A stretch of 62,725 nt of DNA, filler included, from Nanobdellota archaeon (GTDB taxonomy: Archaea; Nanobdellota; Nanobdellia; B33-G15): the NCBI GenBank assembly GCA_003660925.1. It is 3 parts of 3 records of this genome, joined end to end, with 100 filler letters (N's around TTAATTAATTAA, not from the genome) between each part and the next. Parts side by side here need not be neighbours in the genome. Positions count along the whole stretch, not along the records: positions 44,113 to 62,725 come from QMVD01000008.1; 2 more parts are not named here. One strand, given 5' to 3'. Position 1 is the first letter of the stretch. Every line of letters begins with the position of its first letter. Of this stretch, positions 22,499 through 48,267 are shown piece after piece. The notes beneath the pieces are model-generated. The model ran no database searches. It saw only the letters and a list, made by a program, of their open reading frames with translations, and was not told where the DNA came from. The translations under genes and the position numbers were made by a program.

Positions 22499-22598
22499 NN
22501 NNNNNNNNNNNNNNNNNNNNNNNNNNNNNNNNNNNNNNNNNNTTAATTAATTAANNNNNNNNNNNNNNNNNNNNNNNNNNNNNNNNNNNNNNNNNNNN
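22499..22598. other. Artificial contig linker (N44-TTAATTAATTAA-N44)
   Basis: Six-frame stop spacer flanked by Ns, identical to 44013-44112. Confidence 0.97.
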
Positions 22599-38521: not shown

Positions 38522-39097
38522 ATGTATGACTTCGGCATATTCGGCGACTTCGATTTCGACCTGACGAAGTTGGGATTCAAGGGGGGAGTGTTCTTCAAGG
38601 ACGAGAGGAAAAGCATCGTCCCAGGACACCTCATAAAGGTGAGGGACAAGTTCGAGCTCAAGAAGTCCGTGAAGGGGAAGAAAGGGTTCATCCTCCTAGA
38701 AGGTGGGGATTATGATCTGAGGAGGTACGCCGTGGAGAAATGCCTCGTGGACGGCATCATCGGGATGGAAAAGTTAAAGGAAGGGATGGATGACGTCTTG
38801 GCCAAGAGGATGGCGGAGAGGAAGGTATCTTTGGTGATTAACTTGAGGGACTATACCAAGGCGAGGAGGAGGGAGGTCATCTTGGGGAGGATGATGCGCC
38901 ACGTGTTCCTCGCCAAGAAATTTAAGACGCCCATCATGTTGGTCAGCGGGGCGAGGAGGAAAGGGGAGTTGAAACATCCTTATGTCATGATATCTTTTGG
39001 AGTGATGCTGGGCCTGAACGTGAAGGAGGCGAGGGAAGCCTTAAGGATGGCCCAAGAGGGGATCATAAAAAGGTTTAAAAATGAGGCCAACGCTTAA
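38522..39097 (+). CDS. rnp3: RNase P protein subunit Rpp30
   Basis: RYAVE...VD, DDVLAK, LVSGA....LKHP. Directly upstream of Pop5. Confidence 0.85.
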   Translation: MYDFGIFGDFDFDLTKLGFKGGVFFKDERKSIVPGHLIKVRDKFELKKSVKGKKGFILLEGGDYDLRRYAVEKCLVDGIIGMEKLKEGMDDVLAKRMAERKVSLVINLRDYTKARRREVILGRMMRHVFLAKKFKTPIMLVSGARRKGELKHPYVMISFGVMLGLNVKEAREALRMAQEGIIKRFKNEANA

Positions 39098-39374
39098 GGA
39101 GAAAAAGAGGTACATCCTGATAAGGAGCATAGAGGGAGATGTGAAGTGGGAAGACATCAAAAAGGCCATCAGGGAGTTCTTGGGAGATGTGGGGTTGGCG
39201 GAAGCCAACCCAAAGGTGATGGAAAAGGGGAAGGGTTACATCATCTTGAGGGTGAGGCATGACATGGTGGATGAAGTGAGGGCTTCATTGGTGCTCTTGG
39301 ACGCCTTACTTTCAGTCCCAAGGGTGAGCGGAACAATTAAAAAGATAAGGGACTTCATTAAAGAGGGGAGATAG
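39081..39374 (+). CDS. rnp2: RNase P protein subunit Pop5
   Basis: PTLKEKKRYI, FLGDVG, VRASL, VSGTIKK. Confidence 0.92.
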   Translation: MRPTLKEKKRYILIRSIEGDVKWEDIKKAIREFLGDVGLAEANPKVMEKGKGYIILRVRHDMVDEVRASLVLLDALLSVPRVSGTIKKIRDFIKEGR

Positions 39375-39376
39375 AG

Positions 39377-40090
39377 ATGCCCGCATTGCCGAGCGATTTC
39401 ATGGGATACGACAGGGCGATAACAGTCTTCAGCCCTGATGGGAGGTTGCTTCAGGTAGAGTACGCTAGGAAGACCGTACAGCAAGGGACCCCTGCCTTAG
39501 GGATAACTTGTGTGGAAGGGGTGGTCTTGGTCGCGGATAAGAGGATCCTAGACAAGCTCATAGTCCCTGCTTCCGTGGAGAAGATCATGCAGATAGACGA
39601 GCACATAGGGGTTACCATGTCGGGATTGATCTCCGACGGGAGGATCCTGATAGAGAGGGCTCAGGAAGAGGCCCAGAGGCACAGGATTCTCTACGGGGAG
39701 CCCATAGACGTGCTCTCCATAGTGAGGAGCATAGGGGACTTCAAGCAGATGTACACTCAATACGCGGGGACGAGGCCCTTCGGGGTGAGCTTGTTGATAG
39801 GAGGGGTGGATAAGAGCCCCAGGCTGTTCGTGACCGAGCCGAGCGGCATATTCTTCGAATATAAGGCAACTGCCATAGGGAAAGGTGCGGAGGTGATAAA
39901 TAAGTTCTTAGAGTCTAAGTATAAGGAGGACATGCGAATGGAAGACGCGATAAAACTGGGGATAAAGGCCCTGAAGAAGGCATTGGGGGCCAAGTTCGAC
40001 GTGAATCGACTCGATGTGGCTGTCATCGCCATGAAGGATAAGAAGTTCAAGCGCATGAAGAGGGAAGATATAATCAAGTTCTCGAGGTAG
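39377..40090 (+). CDS. psmA: Proteasome alpha subunit
   Basis: [29 protein letters not shown]. Confidence 0.98.
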
Positions 40091-40094
40091 AGGT

Positions 40095-40784
40095 ATGGTA
40101 AGCGTAGAGGACGCTGTAATCGCCAAACTCAGGAAAGATGGGAAGGAGTTCCAGGTACTCGTGGATTGCGATTTGGCGATGAGGTTCAGGAAGGGGGAAC
40201 AAGTGGATATAAGTGACGTCCTCGCCGTGGAGAGGGTGTTCAAGGACGCAAGGAAGGGAGAGGCTGCCCCGGACCTGGAGAAGTATTTCGGGACGGATGA
40301 CGTCCTGAAGATAGCTGAGGAGATCATCAAGAAGGGGGAGATCCAGCTCACCGCCGAATACAGGAGGAGATTACTCGAGGAGAAGAGGAAGCAAATCATT
40401 TTCAAGATAAGCAGGTATGCGGTGGACCCAAAGACCAACACCCCCATCCCAGAGAAGAGGATAGAGTTGGCGATGGAACAAGCGAAGGTCCACATAGATC
40501 CGTTCAAGGGGGTGGAGGAGCAGACAAAGAACGTCTTAGAGGCCTTGAGGCCCATCATTCCCATAAAACTCTCCACGAAGAAGTTGAGGGTGATCATCCC
40601 CGCGAGATATGCCCCGAAGATATACGGGAAGGTCAAGGGATTCGGAGAAGTCTCTAAGGAAACGTGGCTGAATAATGGTGACTGGATGTGTGAGCTCGAG
40701 ATCCCTGCTGGGATCCTGGACGGCGTGCTCTCCGAATTGAATCAATTAACGAAAGGAGAGGTGGACGTGAGGGTGTTAGAATGA
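40095..40784 (+). CDS. Ribosome maturation factor SBDS/Sdo1
   Basis: AVIAKL...[27 protein letters not shown]. Confidence 0.95.
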
Positions 40785-41467
40785 TATACGTGAAACCCAA
40801 GCAAATAGTGATACCTGGCGAGGTCTTGGGGGAAGGCATGGACATCATACCCGGAGAGGGGACCATAAGGGAAGGGAGGAAGATAATAGCGACGGTGGTC
40901 GGCCTAGCGGACATAAGCGGGAGGGTGTTGAAGATAATCCCGCTGGAGGGGCCCTACAATCCAAAACCAGGGCACGTGGTGATAGGTGAGGTGGTGGACA
41001 TAGGGTTCTCTGGATGGATAGTGAACATAGGCGGGCCCTACATGGCCAACTTGCCAGTGGGGGAGGCGGTTAAGGAGTACGTCGACCTCTTGAAGACCGA
41101 TTTGAGCAGATATTATGATCTGGGGGACAAGATCGTGGCCAAGGTGATAAGCGTGACCAGGTCGAAGAACGTCCAACTATCCATGAAAGGGCCTGGCTTG
41201 AGGAAATTAGAAGGCGGACACATAATTAAGATAACTAGCTACAAGGTTCCCAGGGTTATAGGGAAAGGTGGGAGCATGATCAAGCTCATAAAGGAGATGA
41301 CGAACACCGCCATCATAGTGGGGCAGAACGGTTGGATATGGATAAAAGGGAGCAGGAGGAAGGACGAGCTGAAGGCCATAAGGGCCATCTACACCATAGA
41401 GAAGGAGTCTCACACTTCAGGTCTTACTGACAAAATAAAACGCATGTTGGGTGATAAGAGTGTATGA
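40781..41467 (+). CDS. rrp4: Exosome RNA-binding subunit Rrp4
   Basis: VIPGE, S1 domain, KH domain [20 protein letters not shown]. Confidence 0.95.
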
Positions 41468-42155
41468 AAAGAGATTCGATGGGAGGAAATTCGATGAACT
41501 GAGGCCAGTGAAGATGAAGGTGGATGTGGTCCCATCCGCGGATGGTTCCGCGGTGGTGGAGATAGGTAACACCAAGGTGATCGCCTCTGTCTTCGGGCCT
41601 AAGCCCCTCCACCCGAAGCACCTACAAAATCCGGAGAAGGGGATCTTAAGGTGTTATTACGACATGATGAGCTTCTCCGTCCCTGAAAGGAAGAGGCCTG
41701 GACCGACGAGGAGGAGCATCGAGATAAGCATGGTGATGAAGAACGCTCTAGCGAGCACCTTGTTGTTGGAGGAGTTCCCGAAGGCAGTGGTGGACGTGTT
41801 CGTGGAGGTTTACGAGGCCAATGCCGGGACGAGGTGTGCCTCCATAACCGCTGCCTCTTTAGCTCTAGCGGATGCAGGGGTTCCCATGAGGGACCTAGTC
41901 TCAGCGGTGGCTGTCGGGAAGGTGGGTGGCATGATCGTGCTGGACTTGACCAAAGAGGAAGAAGATCATCCAGAGGGGGCGACGGACATCCCCATCGCGA
42001 TGGTGGGGAGGAGCGGAAAGATAACTGCCCTGCAATTGGATGGAGCCATAACTAAGGAGGAGTTGAAGAAGGCCTTGGAGCTCGGGAAGAAGGGATGTTC
42101 CATCCTTTACGAAATGCAAAGGAAGGCTCTCAAGGCGAAGTATGGGGTGAGGTGA
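41451..42155 (+). CDS. rrp41: Exosome catalytic subunit Rrp41
   Basis: RFDGRKFDELRP, ADGSA, RRSIEIS, AGTRCA, DLTKEEED. Confidence 0.95.
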   Translation: MIRVYEKRFDGRKFDELRPVKMKVDVVPSADGSAVVEIGNTKVIASVFGPKPLHPKHLQNPEKGILRCYYDMMSFSVPERKRPGPTRRSIEISMVMKNALASTLLLEEFPKAVVDVFVEVYEANAGTRCASITAASLALADAGVPMRDLVSAVAVGKVGGMIVLDLTKEEEDHPEGATDIPIAMVGRSGKITALQLDGAITKEELKKALELGKKGCSILYEMQRKALKAKYGVR

Positions 42156-42156
42156 G

Positions 42157-43473
42157 ATGGGGGTTAAGATAAGGGGGATATATTCCACCGCTATAAGCAA
42201 GATACTCCACGACAACGGGATCGAGGTGGTGAATCCCTCGGATTTGGTCAGGGAAAGGATGAAGATAGAGAACAGGGGAAAGGTGGACACCCTTATATAC
42301 GACAAAGAGGACCTGGATGGGATCATCATACACGGGAGGGAGAGCGAAAAGGTGTTAGAAGTCCTGAAGAAGGAGTTGGGAACCCTCTTCGTGAAGAAGC
42401 TGGAGACAGGGGATATCTACAGAGGGATCATAAAGAGAGTGGACATGAAGGACAAGGAGATCATCGTGGACCTGGGAGGAAGGGAAGGTCTGTTGTCCTT
42501 AAGGGATTATTGGGGATATTTGAAGGAGGGACAACCCGTTTTGGTCCAAGTTAAGGGGAGGAACAAGGACTTCTTCCTGCTCTCCTCTCACTTGAGGTTA
42601 TTTGGGGAGAACATGGTGCTGATCAAGGACGGCTTCACCAAGCCCAGCAAGCACATAAAGGACAGGGAGGAGATGGAGAGGTTGTTAGAGTTAAGTAAGG
42701 AAGCAAAGCTCAAGGGATGGGGGATCCTGTGGAAGGCCTTAGCGGAGGGGAAGAGCGATGAGGAGCTCCTCAAGGAGATGAGAGAGCTCATGGAAGAGGA
42801 AAAGAAGATAAAAGAGGAGTTCGAGAAGGGGAAGGAACCAGAGCTCCTAAAGAAGGGGTTCTGCATATACTTCGTGGACTTCCCCCTGGAGGTCAAGGAA
42901 AGGTTAGATGAGATCAGGGCCAAGGTCTCCCCCACCATAAAAGGGCATCACTTATTGAAGTCTGGGGGCTACATGATGCTGGCGGACTTCGCGGACAAGT
43001 TGGTGGGAGAGGTGAAGCCAGAGAAACTCGTGGAGGGGATAAAACAAGTGTTTGACCAGAACGTGAAGGAGGGCAACTTCTTCAAGATAATCAGGAAGAA
43101 GGTGGGAGGAGAGATGACGGTCTGGAAAGGTAAGATAGCTGAGAAGGGGAAGAGCCTAAAGGTCGTGAGGAGGCTCAGGCCAGGGAAGTACAATGACGTG
43201 GACATAGATCAAGGGGATTACGAGATCATCACCTTGAAGGAGAGGGAGGAGCACGTGGTCCATGAGTATTTCAATCAGAAGGGAGAGTTGAAGGCAAGGT
43301 TCTATTCGGTGAACACCCCAGTGGAGTTATTCCCGAGGTTCGCGAGGTACATCTACTTGGGGGTGGATGTTGTAGAAAAGGAAGGGAAGAAGGAAGTAAT
43401 CCAGCGCGTCCAGGAAATTCCAGAGGAGGTGAGGGGAAGGGCCATGAAGATAGCTGAGGGGTTGGTGAGGTAA
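42157..43473 (+). CDS. FAU-1/AubA-like RNase (RNase E/G-related, with S1 and DUF402-like domains)
   Basis: VKIRGIYSTAISK, S1 domain, SKHI, WGILW, LDEIR.KV.PTI.GHH.LKS, YSVNTPVE...YI.L.VDVV. Confidence 0.8.
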   Translation: MGVKIRGIYSTAISKILHDNGIEVVNPSDLVRERMKIENRGKVDTLIYDKEDLDGIIIHGRESEKVLEVLKKELGTLFVKKLETGDIYRGIIKRVDMKDKEIIVDLGGREGLLSLRDYWGYLKEGQPVLVQVKGRNKDFFLLSSHLRLFGENMVLIKDGFTKPSKHIKDREEMERLLELSKEAKLKGWGILWKALAEGKSDEELLKEMRELMEEEKKIKEEFEKGKEPELLKKGFCIYFVDFPLEVKERLDEIRAKVSPTIKGHHLLKSGGYMMLADFADKLVGEVKPEKLVEGIKQVFDQNVKEGNFFKIIRKKVGGEMTVWKGKIAEKGKSLKVVRRLRPGKYNDVDIDQGDYEIITLKEREEHVVHEYFNQKGELKARFYSVNTPVELFPRFARYIYLGVDVVEKEGKKEVIQRVQEIPEEVRGRAMKIAEGLVR

Positions 43474-44012
43474 ATGAACACGTCTCTGAAGAATTTCATC
43501 CTCGACTTGGCGAAGAAAGGCATGAGGATAGATGAAAGGGGCTTGAACGAGTTGAGGGAAGTGAAGGTGAGTTGCGGCGTCTCGAAAAACGCTGAGGGCT
43601 CGGCCAGGGTGAAATTGGGAAAGACAGAGGTCATGGTGGGGGTTAAAATGGACGTGGGAGAGCCCTTCGCGGACAGACCAGATGAGGGCATCCTCATAGT
43701 GAACGCCGAGCTATCCGCCCTAGCGAGCCCCGAGTTCGAGCCTGGTCCCCCAGGAGAGGAGGCCATCGAGCTCGCCAGGGTGGTGGACAGGGGGATAAGG
43801 GGAGCGAACATGATAGATTTAAAGAAACTTTTCATAGAGGAGGGGAAGGTTTGGTGCGTCTTCGTCGACATATACGTCATCAACCACGATGGCAACCTCA
43901 TAGATGCTGCTGCCTTGGGGGCTGTCGCCGCCCTGAAGGACGCCCGCTTCCCGAAGCTGGAGGAAGGGAAGGTGGTGTATGGAGAGAAGACCAAGAAGAA
44001 GCTCCCCATAAC
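43474..44012 (+). CDS. rrp42: Exosome subunit Rrp42 (3'-truncated)
   Basis: RIDER, AEGSARVKLG.T, FEPGPP...IELARVVDRGIR, HDGNLIDA. Confidence 0.95.
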
Positions 44013-44112
44013 NNNNNNNNNNNNNNNNNNNNNNNNNNNNNNNNNNNNNNNNNNNNTTAATTAATTAANNNNNNNNNNNNNNNNNNNNNNNNNNNNNNNN
44101 NNNNNNNNNNNN
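44013..44112. other. Artificial contig linker (N44-TTAATTAATTAA-N44)
   Basis: Same six-frame stop spacer as 22499-22598. Confidence 0.97.
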
Positions 44113-44355
44113 CCCAGTCCCGTTGCTCGCGTTGTACCAATAACCTGGGACGATGCCCGTGTACGTGAAATTGACCGGCGTGTTGTTTATGCCCGTGTTT
44201 ATGTACCTGCTTATTGTCAACTCAGCAGTTGTTTGCTCCGTCTTAGGTGCTGCAGCGAAGAAGACGAATGGATAGGGTTGTAAGAGGCCATATATGGCCA
44301 AGAAGGAAAATAGGAATACCACCACACCCACGATGTATTCGAAGCCTATCTTCAC
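44113..44355 (-). CDS. Putative surface-fibre subunit (truncated), paralogous to 45047..45598
   Basis: N-terminal TM, then TTAELTISRYINTGINNTPVNF..IVPG..Y.AS, aligning with SVTVKEFISVTL..YPINFPELNPG..QPAS. Confidence 0.6.
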
Positions 44356-45050
44356 CGCTTACGCCTCCTTTTAGGCTTGAATTTTAACATTCCTTTCGCA
44401 TATATAAGGATTGCGAGTGCTGCTAACACGACGACTAACACTATCCACGGCAGGTAAACGACGTACCAAGGGGCGGTGGATATCACCAACTCCTCATAGT
44501 ATTCCTGGGAAACCACTTGGAGGTTTACGTCAAGGGAGGTCGAGACCGCTGGGATCACGGTCCCGGGAGGGATAGTGAAGCAGTTCCCCTGAGCCGTCAG
44601 GGTGAACTTGTGAGTCTCCCAGAGGGTTGCATTTTCAGGGACTTCAATGTACATCTTCACCGTGGAAACAGGGATGTAGCCCTCCTTGCTAGGGTGTTTC
44701 ACGTAGTCCTCTCCAGCGGCTATGGTGGAAGGCTTGTAGGTAACCACGGGTCTCGGAGGGATCGCCAAGTTCTCGCTCGTAGTTATCAATACCCCAGAAA
44801 CGTTGTAGGTGGCCTCGTGGAGCTCCGGCTCTATCCAGTAATTCCAATCGACATCAGAAGTGACGCTTAACACAACGTGGGTCGGCCTGTCTCCGTACAA
44901 GTTATAAAGGTTCCAAGTTATTTCCACAGTCTGCCCTGGCATCGCCTGAGCGCTCGCTGAGAGGGGAGTGGCCCCCAAACTACAGCTCGCCTTAGTCACT
45001 GACAGGACTAATAAGAAAAGTCCAACCAGTGAAAAAATCTTTTTAATCAT
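44352..45050 (-). CDS. Secreted Ig-like protein with C-terminal TM anchor and basic tail
   Basis: Signal peptide MIKKIFSLVGLFLL, AMPGQTVEITWNLYN, C-terminal TM plus KPKRRRKR. Coupled by ATGA/GTGA overlaps on both sides. Confidence 0.75.
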   Translation of the reverse strand: MIKKIFSLVGLFLLVLSVTKASCSLGATPLSASAQAMPGQTVEITWNLYNLYGDRPTHVVLSVTSDVDWNYWIEPELHEATYNVSGVLITTSENLAIPPRPVVTYKPSTIAAGEDYVKHPSKEGYIPVSTVKMYIEVPENATLWETHKFTLTAQGNCFTIPPGTVIPAVSTSLDVNLQVVSQEYYEELVISTAPWYVVYLPWIVLVVVLAALAILIYAKGMLKFKPKRRRKR

Positions 45051-45598
45051 CCCGTGCTCTTCACCACTTTTATCGTTATGTTGGCTTGGTATGGGCCCGC
45101 TATCTGGCCAGCTGGGACGGATATGTAATACCATATGCTCCTATTGTGCTCGGTCCCGCAGGGGCAATCCTGCCACTCGTATGCCTTCTTATCCACGTTC
45201 AACTGAAGGGGGGTCAATGTCGTTATGTTGGTGGAATTAAAGGACATATTCCCGATGAGGAAGGAATGTCCCGCAGCTGTCCCGCTCCCCACGAAGTTAG
45301 AAGTCGCGTTTATGGTTATGTTATAGCCCACATTCGTCTCAGCACCGATGGTGAGATTGGAAGGGTTGGTGGAGGCTGGCTGATTGCTCGTGCCCGGGTT
45401 TAACTCTGGGAAGTTAATGGGATAACCCTCTTGTAGTGTGACTGAGATGAACTCCTTAACAGTTACGGAAGCGTTCGTGGAGGCCGTCTGAACGAGCATG
45501 CCAGTTATGATGCTTTCCCTCACTTGACTTGAGATGAACCAAGCACCGGCGAGGACGAGGAATATAAGAGCATAAGTTATGAGACTTTCAGCATCCAT
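45047..45598 (-). CDS. Putative major surface-fibre/pilin-like subunit
   Basis: N-terminal TM followed by ITG, an all-beta Asn/Thr-rich domain, and C-terminal WYYISVPAGQIAGPYQANITIKV. Has its own TATA-like element. Confidence 0.7.
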   Translation of the reverse strand: MDAESLITYALIFLVLAGAWFISSQVRESIITGMLVQTASTNASVTVKEFISVTLQEGYPINFPELNPGTSNQPASTNPSNLTIGAETNVGYNITINATSNFVGSGTAAGHSFLIGNMSFNSTNITTLTPLQLNVDKKAYEWQDCPCGTEHNRSIWYYISVPAGQIAGPYQANITIKVVKSTG

Positions 45599-45635
45599 GT
45601 TTACTTCCTATGATTTTTACTATTTAAAAGTTTTC

Positions 45636-47258
45636 CTAAGAAGTCTTGTTCACGAGGACGGTCACGTTAGTCGCATAGGGTCCTCCCGCGGCCTGGCCGA
45701 CAGGCACCTCCAACCACCAATAAATTGAGTGATTGCTCAGCCCAGATGGTATGTTCGACTTGAATATCTGGTACGATGTGGAGAGGCCTGTCTTGTAAGA
45801 GGGGGAAGAGGATTCATTGTATTTCAAGTTCGAGAGGGGGATGGTGTTCACACCATCCGTGAGGTCCCCGGAGCCCACTAACCATATGTCCGTATTCACG
45901 TTGGAATCTATCTCCACCATTAAGGGGAACCCTTTTATCCCAGAACCGCACTCCGCGATGCTCCCATCGCTGGCTGGGTACTCTCCTCCTGCATCCACAC
46001 TTCCGAAGCAGATGGGACCGTTATAGAGGGTTATGGAGATGTACTCCGCTTGAACGTCTATGACGTTCACTTCCGTGGCATTAGAATTGCCTGAGGTGTC
46101 GTTGGCGTAGAACATCCAACCCACTGCCTTCCCACTGCAGGCGGATGGAATGACCTGAGTAACGTTGGACCAAGAGTTGTTGGGTTGAAGGAAGTCGGAG
46201 ATGGTCACGTTCTCCCAAGTATCGCAGTTTCCGGAGGCGTTCCAGGAGAATGTCCAGTAATCCAAGCCCGCGTTGTCGAACCACAAGGCAGAAAATTTCA
46301 CCGCATCCCCTGGGAAGGGGGTCGTATCGTTGGCTTGGACAGAAGTGTAATAAGGAGGGGTGTTCTCCTTGACCTGATAGCTCTGAATTGGGGTGGCGTT
46401 CCACATGTTAGAGGTATCGTTCGCGTATATCCTCCACCCTATAACCTTCCCCTCACAGGCAGAAGGGATGACCCAAGAAAGGTTGGACCAAGCGTCGTTC
46501 CCGGAGAGTGTGGTTGAGGAGACATTATCCAAGGTGTCGCAGTTCGCCCCTGTTCCGTTCACCTCCAAGACCGCGTAACTCATGCCTGCCTCGTCCGTCC
46601 ACCTCACTTGATGTTCCACCACATCCCCTGGGCGGATATCACTATCGTTCACGTAGATCTCATGCCATTTAGGCGGATAATAAAGGTAGACTTGGACATC
46701 ATCCCAATAGCCTTCATTCGTGGGTTTATCCGCGTTCTCGGGAGCAGGCCCTGTCTGGACATAGAGCTTCACGGTGTAGGTCCCGGTCACATCGACGATG
46801 TCCGTGATGTCTTCGCTCACTTCAATCCACCCGGTATCCCCTGCGGTCGTCACGGTGGAGGAGACGTAGAGGACGAATTCTGTCCCATTGGAATGTATTA
46901 ACCTCACCTCTGCGTGGTAGTCCGTGTCGTCGTCCGTGACCAACCTGTACCAAGCGACCAATTTGGTCTGGTTGGGGACGGAAGTCAGGGAGAAGGAATA
47001 GTTTATCCACTGCTCCGAGGTCGGATTGCTTCCCGTGTCGGAGTCGTTGTGGAGCATGTAGTAACATCCAGGGTCGTAGTGGCCTCCTGTTGAGTTCCAC
47101 GCCCCAGAAGCCACTCCGGAGGCGTCCACCTCCCCGTAGGTCCATCCAGAGGCGTCAGATGTGAAATTTGGGTTCGCTATGGTCTCTGTCTGAGCATAGG
47201 ACAGTAAGAGAAATAGGAATAAAATGATCAAGAAAAAAACGAATGCTTGTCTCTTCAT
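45636..47258 (-). CDS. Large secreted surface protein/adhesin (jelly-roll domain + two Ig-like repeats + fibre-subunit domain)
   Basis: Reads on the minus strand (CAT at 47256-47258, CTA at 45636-45638) despite the + label in the track. Signal peptide, NPNF..DASGW...WDDV domain, two YANDTS(G)N repeats, C-terminal WWLEVPVGQAAGGPYATNVTV. Confidence 0.8.
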   Translation of the reverse strand: MKRQAFVFFLIILFLFLLLSYAQTETIANPNFTSDASGWTYGEVDASGVASGAWNSTGGHYDPGCYYMLHNDSDTGSNPTSEQWINYSFSLTSVPNQTKLVAWYRLVTDDDTDYHAEVRLIHSNGTEFVLYVSSTVTTAGDTGWIEVSEDITDIVDVTGTYTVKLYVQTGPAPENADKPTNEGYWDDVQVYLYYPPKWHEIYVNDSDIRPGDVVEHQVRWTDEAGMSYAVLEVNGTGANCDTLDNVSSTTLSGNDAWSNLSWVIPSACEGKVIGWRIYANDTSNMWNATPIQSYQVKENTPPYYTSVQANDTTPFPGDAVKFSALWFDNAGLDYWTFSWNASGNCDTWENVTISDFLQPNNSWSNVTQVIPSACSGKAVGWMFYANDTSGNSNATEVNVIDVQAEYISITLYNGPICFGSVDAGGEYPASDGSIAECGSGIKGFPLMVEIDSNVNTDIWLVGSGDLTDGVNTIPLSNLKYNESSSPSYKTGLSTSYQIFKSNIPSGLSNHSIYWWLEVPVGQAAGGPYATNVTVLVNKTS

Positions 47259-47355: not shown

Positions 47356-48267
47356 ATGAAAAAGTGCAAAGTTTGTGGACGTAAGGGTCCACTAGACGTC
47401 TTCAGGTGGAAAGAGGAGGCTATATGGGAAGACTGCAAAATGGGTGAGAATATGGTAGATAGCTTCCTTTACCACGCGTGGGATTACTTAGCGGCCGTTA
47501 CTGTCCTAGAGAAAGGGTTGGTCCCTCCGAAGGAGTTTGAGCTCGAAAAACTCCTCGAGGTGTATGAGAAGCTCCCCGCGGAAGTGAAGGAGAGTTTTGA
47601 AGGATTCGGGAATTGCCTGAAGGAGAGACTTAAAGTGGACGCCCTCTCTGCCCTGGAGAGTTACATACTTCAGCCCATTAGAGCAGAAGATCTCGAAGTG
47701 GATGCTATCAGGAAGTTGCCCGTTCACGCGAACCCATACGTAGGGAGGCTATCCTCTGCCCTCTTATATGCCAAGATCTTGGGGAGGGGGGAGGAAGGAG
47801 CCATTGGAGTTTTTAGGAGAGAGTGGTCCAAAGTGAAGGATTTCATGAGGGGTTTGGCCGAAGAGACCTTACAGTACGCGAAGAAACTAGGAAGGGTAGA
47901 TGAAGGGATAACTCTCAATGAGTTGTTGAAAAGAGATGAGGATTTCGTGGAGAAAGTCGTCTATTGGTGGGCTTGCTCATCCACCACCTTGACGTTCAGG
48001 TTAACCAGGAAAGGAGTAGAATTCGAGGGAAAAACGCTGAAGGGTCTGGGGGACTCCCCCTTGGTGGAAAGTTGGAGGAGAAAGAAACTCGCAGAGCTCC
48101 CGGTTGAGTACATAGAGGATTTCGTCAGGGGAGAGGACTGGGGCTCCTGGGAGGGGAGGCACAAGTTCTTCAAGGAAGATGAAATCATTAAACAGGCGAG
48201 AAATAAGGCGAAAGAAAACATTAAGTTCTTAGAGACAGTCTATGGGCTGAAGTTCCCTCTGAAGTGA
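47356..48267 (+). CDS. Hypothetical protein
   Basis: 303 aa ORF with N-terminal CKVC and TATA-like TTTATAAA upstream. No family recognised. Confidence 0.6.
   Translation: MKKCKVCGRKGPLDVFRWKEEAIWEDCKMGENMVDSFLYHAWDYLAAVTVLEKGLVPPKEFELEKLLEVYEKLPAEVKESFEGFGNCLKERLKVDALSALESYILQPIRAEDLEVDAIRKLPVHANPYVGRLSSALLYAKILGRGEEGAIGVFRREWSKVKDFMRGLAEETLQYAKKLGRVDEGITLNELLKRDEDFVEKVVYWWACSSTTLTFRLTRKGVEFEGKTLKGLGDSPLVESWRRKKLAELPVEYIEDFVRGEDWGSWEGRHKFFKEDEIIKQARNKAKENIKFLETVYGLKFPLK

Follow-up and report, generated by a model that had tools for sequence, protein, structure and literature searches.

A candidate chaperone-assisted, donor-strand-exchange pilus encoded by a gene cluster of a Nanobdellota archaeon

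A 62,725-nucleotide stretch of DNA from a Nanobdellota archaeon (GenBank assembly GCA_003660925.1), hereafter called the window, carries at positions 44,113 to 47,258 four same-direction minus-strand genes, whose products are termed P0001, P0002, P0003 and P0004 (Table 1). We consider it fairly likely that this cluster encodes a pilus assembled by donor-strand exchange with the assistance of a chaperone and with neither usher nor sortase, which resembles the Elr/WxL and Pam pili in its working and fails the family tests of both. This reading is built on the anatomy and order of the genes, their homology and conservation, the distribution of strand motifs, the predicted folds of two monomers and analogy with known pili, from which we infer binding, polymerisation, subunit order and function. 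The initial annotation of this DNA had proposed a non-type-IV attachment filament, and this proposal is supported by the present analysis, as structural searches return pilin folds, the three copies of the pilin domain are homologous, and the gene set is widespread.

Pilin domain and donor strand

One beta-rich domain had been described as recurring three times in the cluster, and the profile comparison bears this out: the C-terminus of P0001, P0002 and P0004 are homologous. The P0001 C-terminus aligns to P0002 with a Smith-Waterman z of 12.9, a score reached by none of 1000 shuffles. The copy in P0004 is not significant in pairwise comparisons (z 1.4 and 1.9); it is supported by the family profile (E 4.2e-8), and the full-length P0004 orthologue in the related locus L021, a protein of 220 amino acids (aa) that is 91% identical, carries the whole domain. 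None of the four cluster proteins has a significant match in Pfam or NCBIfam. The domain itself is widely distributed, as a profile of 22 domains matches 83 of 301 genomes of the class (seven of which supplied training rows), and a profile of 65 rows matches four of 38 genomes of another archaeal phylum as well as 4,004 clusters (50% identity), of which 1,410 match at E<=1e-10; the ESM Atlas neighbours of P0002 include clusters with 19-20% WxL members. Its position is strict: the domain ends no more than 15 aa from the C-terminus in 66 of 67 locus genes, and no more than 20 aa from it in 138 of the 141 proteins outside the training set in a held-out collection of 147 new proteins (132 of the 141 being classifiable). 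A tree of 65 pilin bodies contains eight changes between small and large forms, compared with a mean of 20 after shuffling; therefore, tip and shaft copies have arisen repeatedly, a result that does not address the origin of the domain.

Residues 34-183 of P0002 were modelled with AlphaFold2 (AF2) as a beta sandwich with a mean predicted local distance difference test score (pLDDT) of 90.9, the first 19 residues of which (1-19 in the model numbering) have no strand pairing. P0002 thus models as a chaperone-usher-type pilin with an incomplete immunoglobulin (Ig) fold and an unpaired N-terminal extension. The best Foldseek rows for this model are mostly chaperone-usher pilins (FimA, CS20, CupE, Caf1, PapA), with a best E of 1.1e-3 and none at or below 0.001. 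Among 48,161 chains compared by VIA, TLP-1b ranks first (Z 8.9, root-mean-square deviation (rmsd) 3.1, 144 aligned), and CsuA/B reaches Z 8.8 (rmsd 3.0, 119 aligned). The closed monomeric Ig fold that the initial annotation had named as speaking against its proposal is therefore not what the model gives, since residues 1-19 remain unpaired and donor-strand pilins are matched.

The N-terminal extension is conserved in the small pilins as T-x-A/S-x-V/A-x-V/I, and 36 of 40 conform to [GAS]x[VILA]x[VIF], in register with the donor consensus of Elr. When a donor strand is called at a matrix score of 6 bits or more, it is found in 33 of the 40 small pilins (leave-one-out), in none of 18 N-termini of the large adhesin proteins, and in none of 90 secreted proteins of this genome that served as controls. 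Furthermore, in the held-out set the strand is found in 91 of 116 pilin domains adjoining a signal helix versus two of 16 others. Between the N-terminal helix and this strand lies an xTG motif, which is present in 21 of 34 small pilins and in 37 of the 116 in the held-out set and may be a signal-peptidase site typical of the lineage; in some pilins its place is taken by an ordinary AxA-type signal peptide, and one archaeal signal peptidase I was found. An xTG soon after an N-terminal helix was also seen in six of 92 secreted proteins of this genome (G000, contigs C1, C27, C49, C51 and C60; shuffled mean 1.3, maximum 6 in 500).

The same proteins might alternatively be monomeric, glycosylated Ig-domain surface proteins, such as accessories of the surface layer (S-layer) or glycosidase-type Ig domains, kept on their N-terminal membrane helices and forming no polymer. 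In line with this, the sole sequence-level hints are the GH123 N-terminal domain (E 0.002-0.003) and NEW3, and the xTG cleavage is itself deduced from sequence; however, such monomers would leave unexplained the strict C-terminal position of the domain, the confinement of the donor strand to small subunits and terminators, the unpaired extension in the model and the fixed gene order, and the AxA-type signal peptides at the xTG place also speak against retention on the helix. We regard this alternative as very unlikely. Kinship with GH123 was considered and rejected: the profile search of Protein Data Bank (PDB) sequences matched only a C-terminal motif to the GH123 N-terminal domain, and this was treated as a shared strand pattern.

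Several variants of the pilin were observed among relatives. Eleven related proteins of 317-365 aa, pairs of which are up to 52% identical (P0177, P0183, P0219, P0225, P0229, P0236, P0246, P0248, P0250, P0253 and P0265), carry two pilin domains in tandem, with a donor-like linker in six of the 11, and look as natural self-complemented di-pilins should. The second pilin, A' (L021:1572-2234, L014:3495-4160, L015:13109-13762, L016:6874-7527), is distinguished by two additional, paired Cys residues and by ~30 inserted residues rich in His and Trp, possibly a binding loop on a minor pilin. Members of another pilin subfamily (L032, L034, L036, L039 and L044-L048) have ~90-100 charged cytoplasmic residues before the membrane helix, and their gene overlaps a conserved small cytoplasmic gene within the cluster, possibly that of a regulator.

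Adhesin, candidate chaperone and proposed assembly

The sequence of P0001 suggests that it is likely the tip adhesin, with a groove and no donor strand, in the layout of ElrA; the donor-strand matrix gives -1.0 bits before its pilin domain and 4.3 bits at its N-terminus. The two Ig-like repeats that had been described in this protein are real repeats, while their Ig-like fold is presumed. Its head domain, which the initial annotation had described as jelly-roll/CBM-like, has no sequence match in Pfam or the PDB that would bear this out, and occurs in 13 other proteins of 543-739 aa with differing architectures, 12 of which end in a pilin-like domain (seven strong matches, five weak ones with E about 1e-5 to 1e-6 in a 14-sequence set, and one protein with none). 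At other loci, the equivalents of P0001 are often of 1,000-2,500 aa or more, reaching thousands of residues, and the domains seen in them include LamG, subtilase S8, DUF2341 and H-type-lectin-like ones. Giant Asn/Thr-rich open reading frames (ORFs) of at least 4,696, 4,077, 2,644 and 1,081 aa were also noted on contigs C13, C12, C27 and C65 of this genome; they are open at the contig ends, and the parts present have no pilin-domain match.

With the same chemistry, the adhesin, one or a few pilins and an anchor could form a short stalk that displays a large adhesin above the S-layer. The tip proteins of relatives, being often so large already, and the existence of two-pilin fusion proteins are in keeping with such a stalk. 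On the other hand, a separate promoter-like element precedes the small pilin at many loci, which is a weak point against it, and the homologous layouts of Elr and Pam yield long fibres. We think the short stalk quite improbable.

P0003 is likely a membrane-anchored PapD-like chaperone, as judged from its model. Residues 21-190 were modelled with a pLDDT of 92.3, and the model aligns to the N-terminal domain of FimC with Z 10.7 (rmsd 2.2, 110 aligned) and to those of SfaE, Caf1M, FaeE and WxLIP with Z 10.3-10.4. Moreover, within one and the same PDB complex (3bwu, 3sqb, 4dwh or 6fjy), the models of P0002 and P0003 each match the chain expected of them. Residue 160 of the P0003 model aligns with FimC residue 118, which lies in what we take to be the G1 strand, and the last strand of P0003 is therefore the counterpart of G1. 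In the loop preceding this strand, Gly163 is kept in 124 of 125 rows of the P0003 alignment and is followed by a conserved hydrophobic run. The candidate donor segment of the chaperone comprises the F-G loop and the start of the G strand. Among divergent chaperone-shaped proteins of other loci, two match PapD-like ASH/HYDIN profiles and two match WxLIP below the cut-off; one homologue of P0003 is labelled Chloroflexota.

The gene order was compared in 30 loci, ten from the first searches and 20 hand-picked from the profile match list, where a chaperone-shaped gene was defined by topology as one encoding a signal peptide, 150-430 aa and a C-terminal transmembrane (TM) helix, a definition that also catches some terminator-like genes. 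Such a gene directly follows 31 of 40 small pilin genes, compared with three of 225 other genes, and lies within 1.5 kb in 28 of the 30 loci. In L021, whose proteins are 85-96% identical to those of the cluster, the order is adhesin, pilin A, chaperone B, pilin A' (220 aa) and chaperone B' (234 aa), followed by three TM-anchored proteins of 588, up to 566 and over 348 aa. The last two of these and a MinD-like ATPase are found on contig C68 of this genome at 97-98% identity, and the intervening genes are covered piecewise by contigs of two public runs. The full set is also present in G003, G015 and G018, and shorter versions are present in G022, G037, L022, L023 and L055; together with the occurrence of the domain in 83 of the 301 genomes, this shows the wide co-occurrence of the gene set on which the initial annotation had made its proposal depend. 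A MinD/ParA-like ATPase gene was observed in seven of the 30 loci, mostly adjoining the cluster (L015, L016, L017, L018, L022, L055 and L084; also G000:C68:1-345); it may serve to position the fibre, or its proximity may be due to chance.

A candidate terminator is the TM-anchored protein whose gene follows that of the last chaperone or pilin; it has a donor-like N-terminal strand in 14 of 26 cases, the L021 orthologue scoring only 2.8 bits. By analogy with ElrB and PamR, the membrane protein encoded past the contig end is a candidate for the anchor and terminator of the fibre. The initial annotation had regarded the 232-aa P0003 as an anchored chaperone; the role of chaperone is favoured here, and that of anchor is better assigned to this further gene.

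In a chaperone-free donor-strand fibre of the tafi, threads or cannulae type, P0003 would instead anchor the fibre in the membrane or act as an adaptor, in a role comparable with that of TafF. The strand-donation pili known from archaea reportedly assemble with no need of a chaperone, anchoring has been proposed as the role of TM-anchored beta proteins encoded in tafi loci, and P0003 has a single domain whose fold is tied with generic Ig domains, all of which fit this alternative. However, a donor strand is found in only one of 34 chaperone-shaped proteins, and P0003-type proteins cannot terminate a fibre of such polarity because they lack it, whereas a separate TM protein with a donor-like strand exists. 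In addition, P0003-type proteins come one per pilin in L014, L015, L016, L018 and L021, and have the conserved hydrophobic F-G segment where the G1 strand of FimC lies. We consider the chaperone-free fibre unlikely.

The chaperone-assisted pilus would then be assembled as follows. The subunits would be exported by Sec and then lose their N-terminal helix, with the xTG or AxA motif as the probable point of release. At the membrane, chaperone B (P0003, or B' for pilin A') would hold the open groove of the pilin with its F-G segment. P0001, with a groove and no donor strand, would enter first and end at the tip, and the pilins A (P0002) and A' (P0004) would join below it, the N-terminal T-x-A/S-x-V-x-V/I strand of each entering the preceding subunit and taking the place of the chaperone. 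Growth would be stopped, and the fibre anchored, by the membrane protein past the contig end, which has a donor-like strand and no pilin domain. No usher, sortase or ATPase would be required. Judged from its sequons, the fibre is probably N-glycosylated; it probably serves attachment, plausibly to a host cell, and given the fibre, we would put host attachment at about an even chance.

A number of points weigh against this reading. All structures are predicted monomers, and the reading rests on genes and models. The Z of 8.8-8.9 for P0002 is moderate and slightly above the 7-8 typical for unrelated models, and its best matches are closely trailed by the CEP192 PapD-like domain (Z 8.6) and GH123 N-domains (Z 7.8). 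For P0003, the highest VIA score belongs to a peptidase domain (Vpr, Z 11.2), and the scores of true chaperones are level with those of ASH/MSP/NEW3 Ig domains; the fold alone is therefore no proof of chaperone function. P0003 is also single-domain, where classical and WxL chaperones have two domains, it is missed by the PapD_N and WxLIP_PGBD profiles, and its own family profile matches only eight of the 301 genomes. Chaperone-shaped genes elsewhere are defined by topology, and 20 divergent proteins of this kind show no significant relation to the P0003 family (hhalign p 0.32). As for the terminator, 12 of the 26 candidates have no strong donor score, and the 26 were chosen by position after their N-termini had been seen, their kin not being independent. 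Finally, archaeal strand-donation pili are described in the available texts as chaperone-independent or with no chaperone named.

Genomic setting of the cluster

The source genome comprises 672 kb in 77 contigs and is 88.5% complete. Parvarchaeota and Nanoarchaeia are among the labels borne by close homologues, and the class is taken to be Nanoarchaeia (DPANN). The window consists of contigs C4, C5 and C8 joined by N spacers, and the cluster begins at base 1, the left end of C8. As the cluster sits at this end, the truncation of P0004 is an assembly edge, and the possibility of a broken fourth gene was rejected. The co-orientation of the four genes and their ATGA/GTGA overlaps, described in the initial annotation, were confirmed directly in the sequence. 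Two public DNA runs, labelled as sediment and seawater metagenomes, contain contigs that cover the stretch uninterrupted and with no indels, and these runs may be the source of this DNA; no RNA dataset is among the matches listed for the cluster stretch.

Table 1. Features of the cluster and artificial joins in the window
Feature	Position	Strand	Description and basis
P0001	45636..47258	-	540 aa, likely tip adhesin: signal peptide, head, two repeats, C-terminal pilin (acceptor) domain with no donor strand of its own
P0001 head domain	46674..47192	-	residues 23-195; mobile module
P0001 tandem repeats	46053..46676	-	two of ~103 aa, presumed Ig-like stalk; 46% identical, z 31
P0001 C-terminal pilin domain	45639..46046	-	residues 405-540; profile E 1.9e-38, alignment
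BRE/TATA-like element	45621..45636	-	upstream of small pilin gene, overlapping adhesin stop codon
P0002	45047..45598	-	183 aa, likely major pilin A: N-terminal hydrophobic helix, xTG motif, donor strand, incomplete Ig-like pilin body; AF2 model and fold matches
P0002 ITG motif	45500..45508	-	residues 31-33, candidate signal-peptidase site; presumed cleavage would free donor strand
P0002 predicted donor strand	45455..45481	-	residues 40-48, pattern T-x-A-x-V-x-V; unpaired in model; 15.9 bits (P0002 in training set); conservation
P0003	44352..45050	-	232 aa, likely membrane-anchored chaperone B: signal peptide, single PapD-like domain, C-terminal membrane helix, basic tail; AF2 model and fold matches
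P0003 F-G loop and G-strand start	44535..44582	-	residues 157-172, candidate chaperone donor segment; mostly unpaired, lowest pLDDT block (71)
P0004	44113..44355	-	pilin A', first 81 aa (~220 aa in relatives), open at contig end; donor strand 44209-44235
N spacer with stop-codon linker	22499-22598		artificial contig join; ORFs running in are artefacts
N spacer with stop-codon linker	44013..44112	.	joins C5 and C8; artificial, not genomic; ORFs running in are artefacts

The sequon-rich composition that had been ascribed to the cluster holds for P0001 and P0002, the N-glycosylation-sequon densities of which (4.3 and 4.9 per 100 aa, respectively) are the top two among 57 window ORFs >150 aa (median 0.17), and is much less extreme in P0003, with two sequons. 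Likewise, the TATA-like element claimed for the small subunit is present 23-38 nt upstream of P0002, combined with a transcription factor B recognition element (BRE)-like sequence, and similar elements recur in the orthologues of L014, L015, L016 and L021; the motif is common throughout the genome, however, and since TTTAWA precedes 112 of 503 genome ORFs, the element is modest evidence. A sigma-70 promoter scan gave chance-level results, the sigma-70 model being inapplicable to archaea.

The absence of type IV pilus components noted at the outset also stands, as no type IV pilus ATPase is encoded on the contigs of the window, and a simple class III signal peptide pattern matches none of the four cluster genes. 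Elsewhere in the genome (C2, C11, C16, C18, C36, C46 and C72), outside the contigs of the window, there are five type II/IV secretion ATPase matches (PF00437), class III pilin-like genes and an exosortase-family gene. The S-layer profile PF05123 has no match in the genome. Divergent from the adhesin gene lies a 303-aa ORF (window 47356-48267) of no Pfam or NCBIfam family, and the stretch at 39081-44012 is presumably an ordinary run of proteasome and exosome genes.

Significance and comparison with known systems

It is not yet understood how DPANN archaea locate their hosts and stay attached to them. An attachment organelle has been seen by cryo-electron tomography, and its proteins are stated to be unknown in that report (PMC11420986). 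The cluster names concrete candidate parts and a proposed assembly order; of the genomes sampled, 83 of 301 in the class and four of 38 in another archaeal phylum carry such parts. In the literature we found no archaeal description of a chaperone-assisted strand-exchange pilus, preprint supplements and most subscription journals being outside the scope of the search, and the words 'chaperone', 'usher' and 'pilin' are absent from the available portions of two Nanobdellota cell-surface studies, one of them PMC11420986. If the reading is true, chaperone-guided strand exchange, recently reported for Bacillota and bacteria of the Candidate Phyla Radiation (CPR), extends to archaea, and a function can be assigned both to a family of ~4,000 unannotated clusters and to the domain in which many giant surface proteins of archaea end. 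More tentatively, and with somewhat less than an even chance in our estimation, DPANN archaea own a chaperone-assisted donor-strand pilus that is a third monoderm version beside WxL and Pam, a general platform on which LamG, subtilase, H-type lectin and unknown heads of large or giant adhesins are placed on one C-terminal pilin domain, with a tethered chaperone per pilin and xTG processing, and which sets host recognition in about a quarter of the class.

Archaic and classical chaperone-usher pili (Csu, type 1, P and Caf1) share with the cluster the pilin fold (as in CsuA/B), the fold of the chaperone N-domain (as in FimC), the logic of a tip adhesin and, by the model, an incomplete Ig-fold pilin with an N-terminal extension. 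Unlike in these pili, the predicted chaperone has one domain, matching the N-domain fold only, is membrane-anchored, and would work with no periplasm. In the five carrier genomes searched (72-92% complete), no usher (PF00577) was found, and PapD_N (PF00345) had no match at E<=1.

Among archaeal filaments, tafi, threads, bundling pili and cannulae (PMC11821415, PMC12337348 and PMC9715654) are similarly glycosylated and use strand donation. Their fold matches to P0002 are weaker (CanA Z 6.3, AbpA Z 6.0), and tafi differ in using Tat export and a dedicated peptidase; the profile search of PDB sequences matched no filament. Archaeal Tat pili are noted as assembling without a chaperone (bioRxiv 10.64898/2026.10.17.759780), and tafi, CanA and Hyper2 are likewise said in the tafi paper to do so. 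The TLP-1a/b pond-water fibrils of unknown origin (PMC11494351), in which donor-strand exchange was seen by cryo-electron microscopy, provide the top fold match of P0002, over 144 residues including the extension, and differ in their 237-aa protomer, n+4 donation, tubular form, 10-11% identity and presumed bacterial origin.

Pam pili of the CPR (PMC13278184) resemble the cluster in belonging to small-genome symbionts with one membrane and in using donor-strand exchange, and have two TM-anchored PapD-like chaperones (PamC and PamD) and a TM terminator with an N-terminal strand (PamR). Compared by description, Pam pilins are two-domain proteins with an internal linker strand and a single-domain tip, whereas P0002 has one domain and its predicted donor strand is N-terminal, and a large adhesin is the likely tip. 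Pam pilins are called exclusive to the CPR in that report.

The Elr/WxL pilus of Enterococcus faecalis (ElrA-E; bioRxiv 10.64898/2026.10.17.759780) has in common with the cluster a PapD-like chaperone on a C-terminal membrane helix (in our case a predicted one, with a fold tied with generic Ig domains), P0003 aligning to WxLIP 9i1y with Z 10.3, and a tip adhesin with a C-terminal acceptor domain and no donor strand. The Elr donor consensus [S/T]x[G/A]x[V/I]xF is in the same register, and 23 of the 40 small pilins fit [ST]x[GAS]x[VILA]x[VIF]; the last donor position is Val, Ile or Leu in all 40 and never Phe, in which the Elr consensus ends. The cluster further differs in its single-domain chaperone, often one per pilin, its candidate TM anchor and its archaeal genome, and the Elr/WxL system is reported in that preprint as confined to Bacillota by a RefSeq screen at Pfam cut-offs. 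WxL (PF13731) has no match in P0001 or P0002, none among the 25 families shown for 65 members, and none in the five genomes at E<=1. WxLIP_PGBD and WxLIP_HBD have no Pfam match in P0003, and appear only below threshold (E 0.017-0.019) in two longer chaperone-shaped proteins of G157. Sortase (PF04203), on which anchoring depends in only some members of the Elr/WxL family, was found in none of the five genomes, the LPxTG motif itself not having been scanned. As the WxL, WxLIP, PapD_N, usher and sortase profiles all fail and the pilin differs from the two-domain pilin of Pam, the cluster is counted as a member of neither the Elr/WxL nor the Pam pili, nor of the chaperone-usher family, and is a system predicted to work like the first two.

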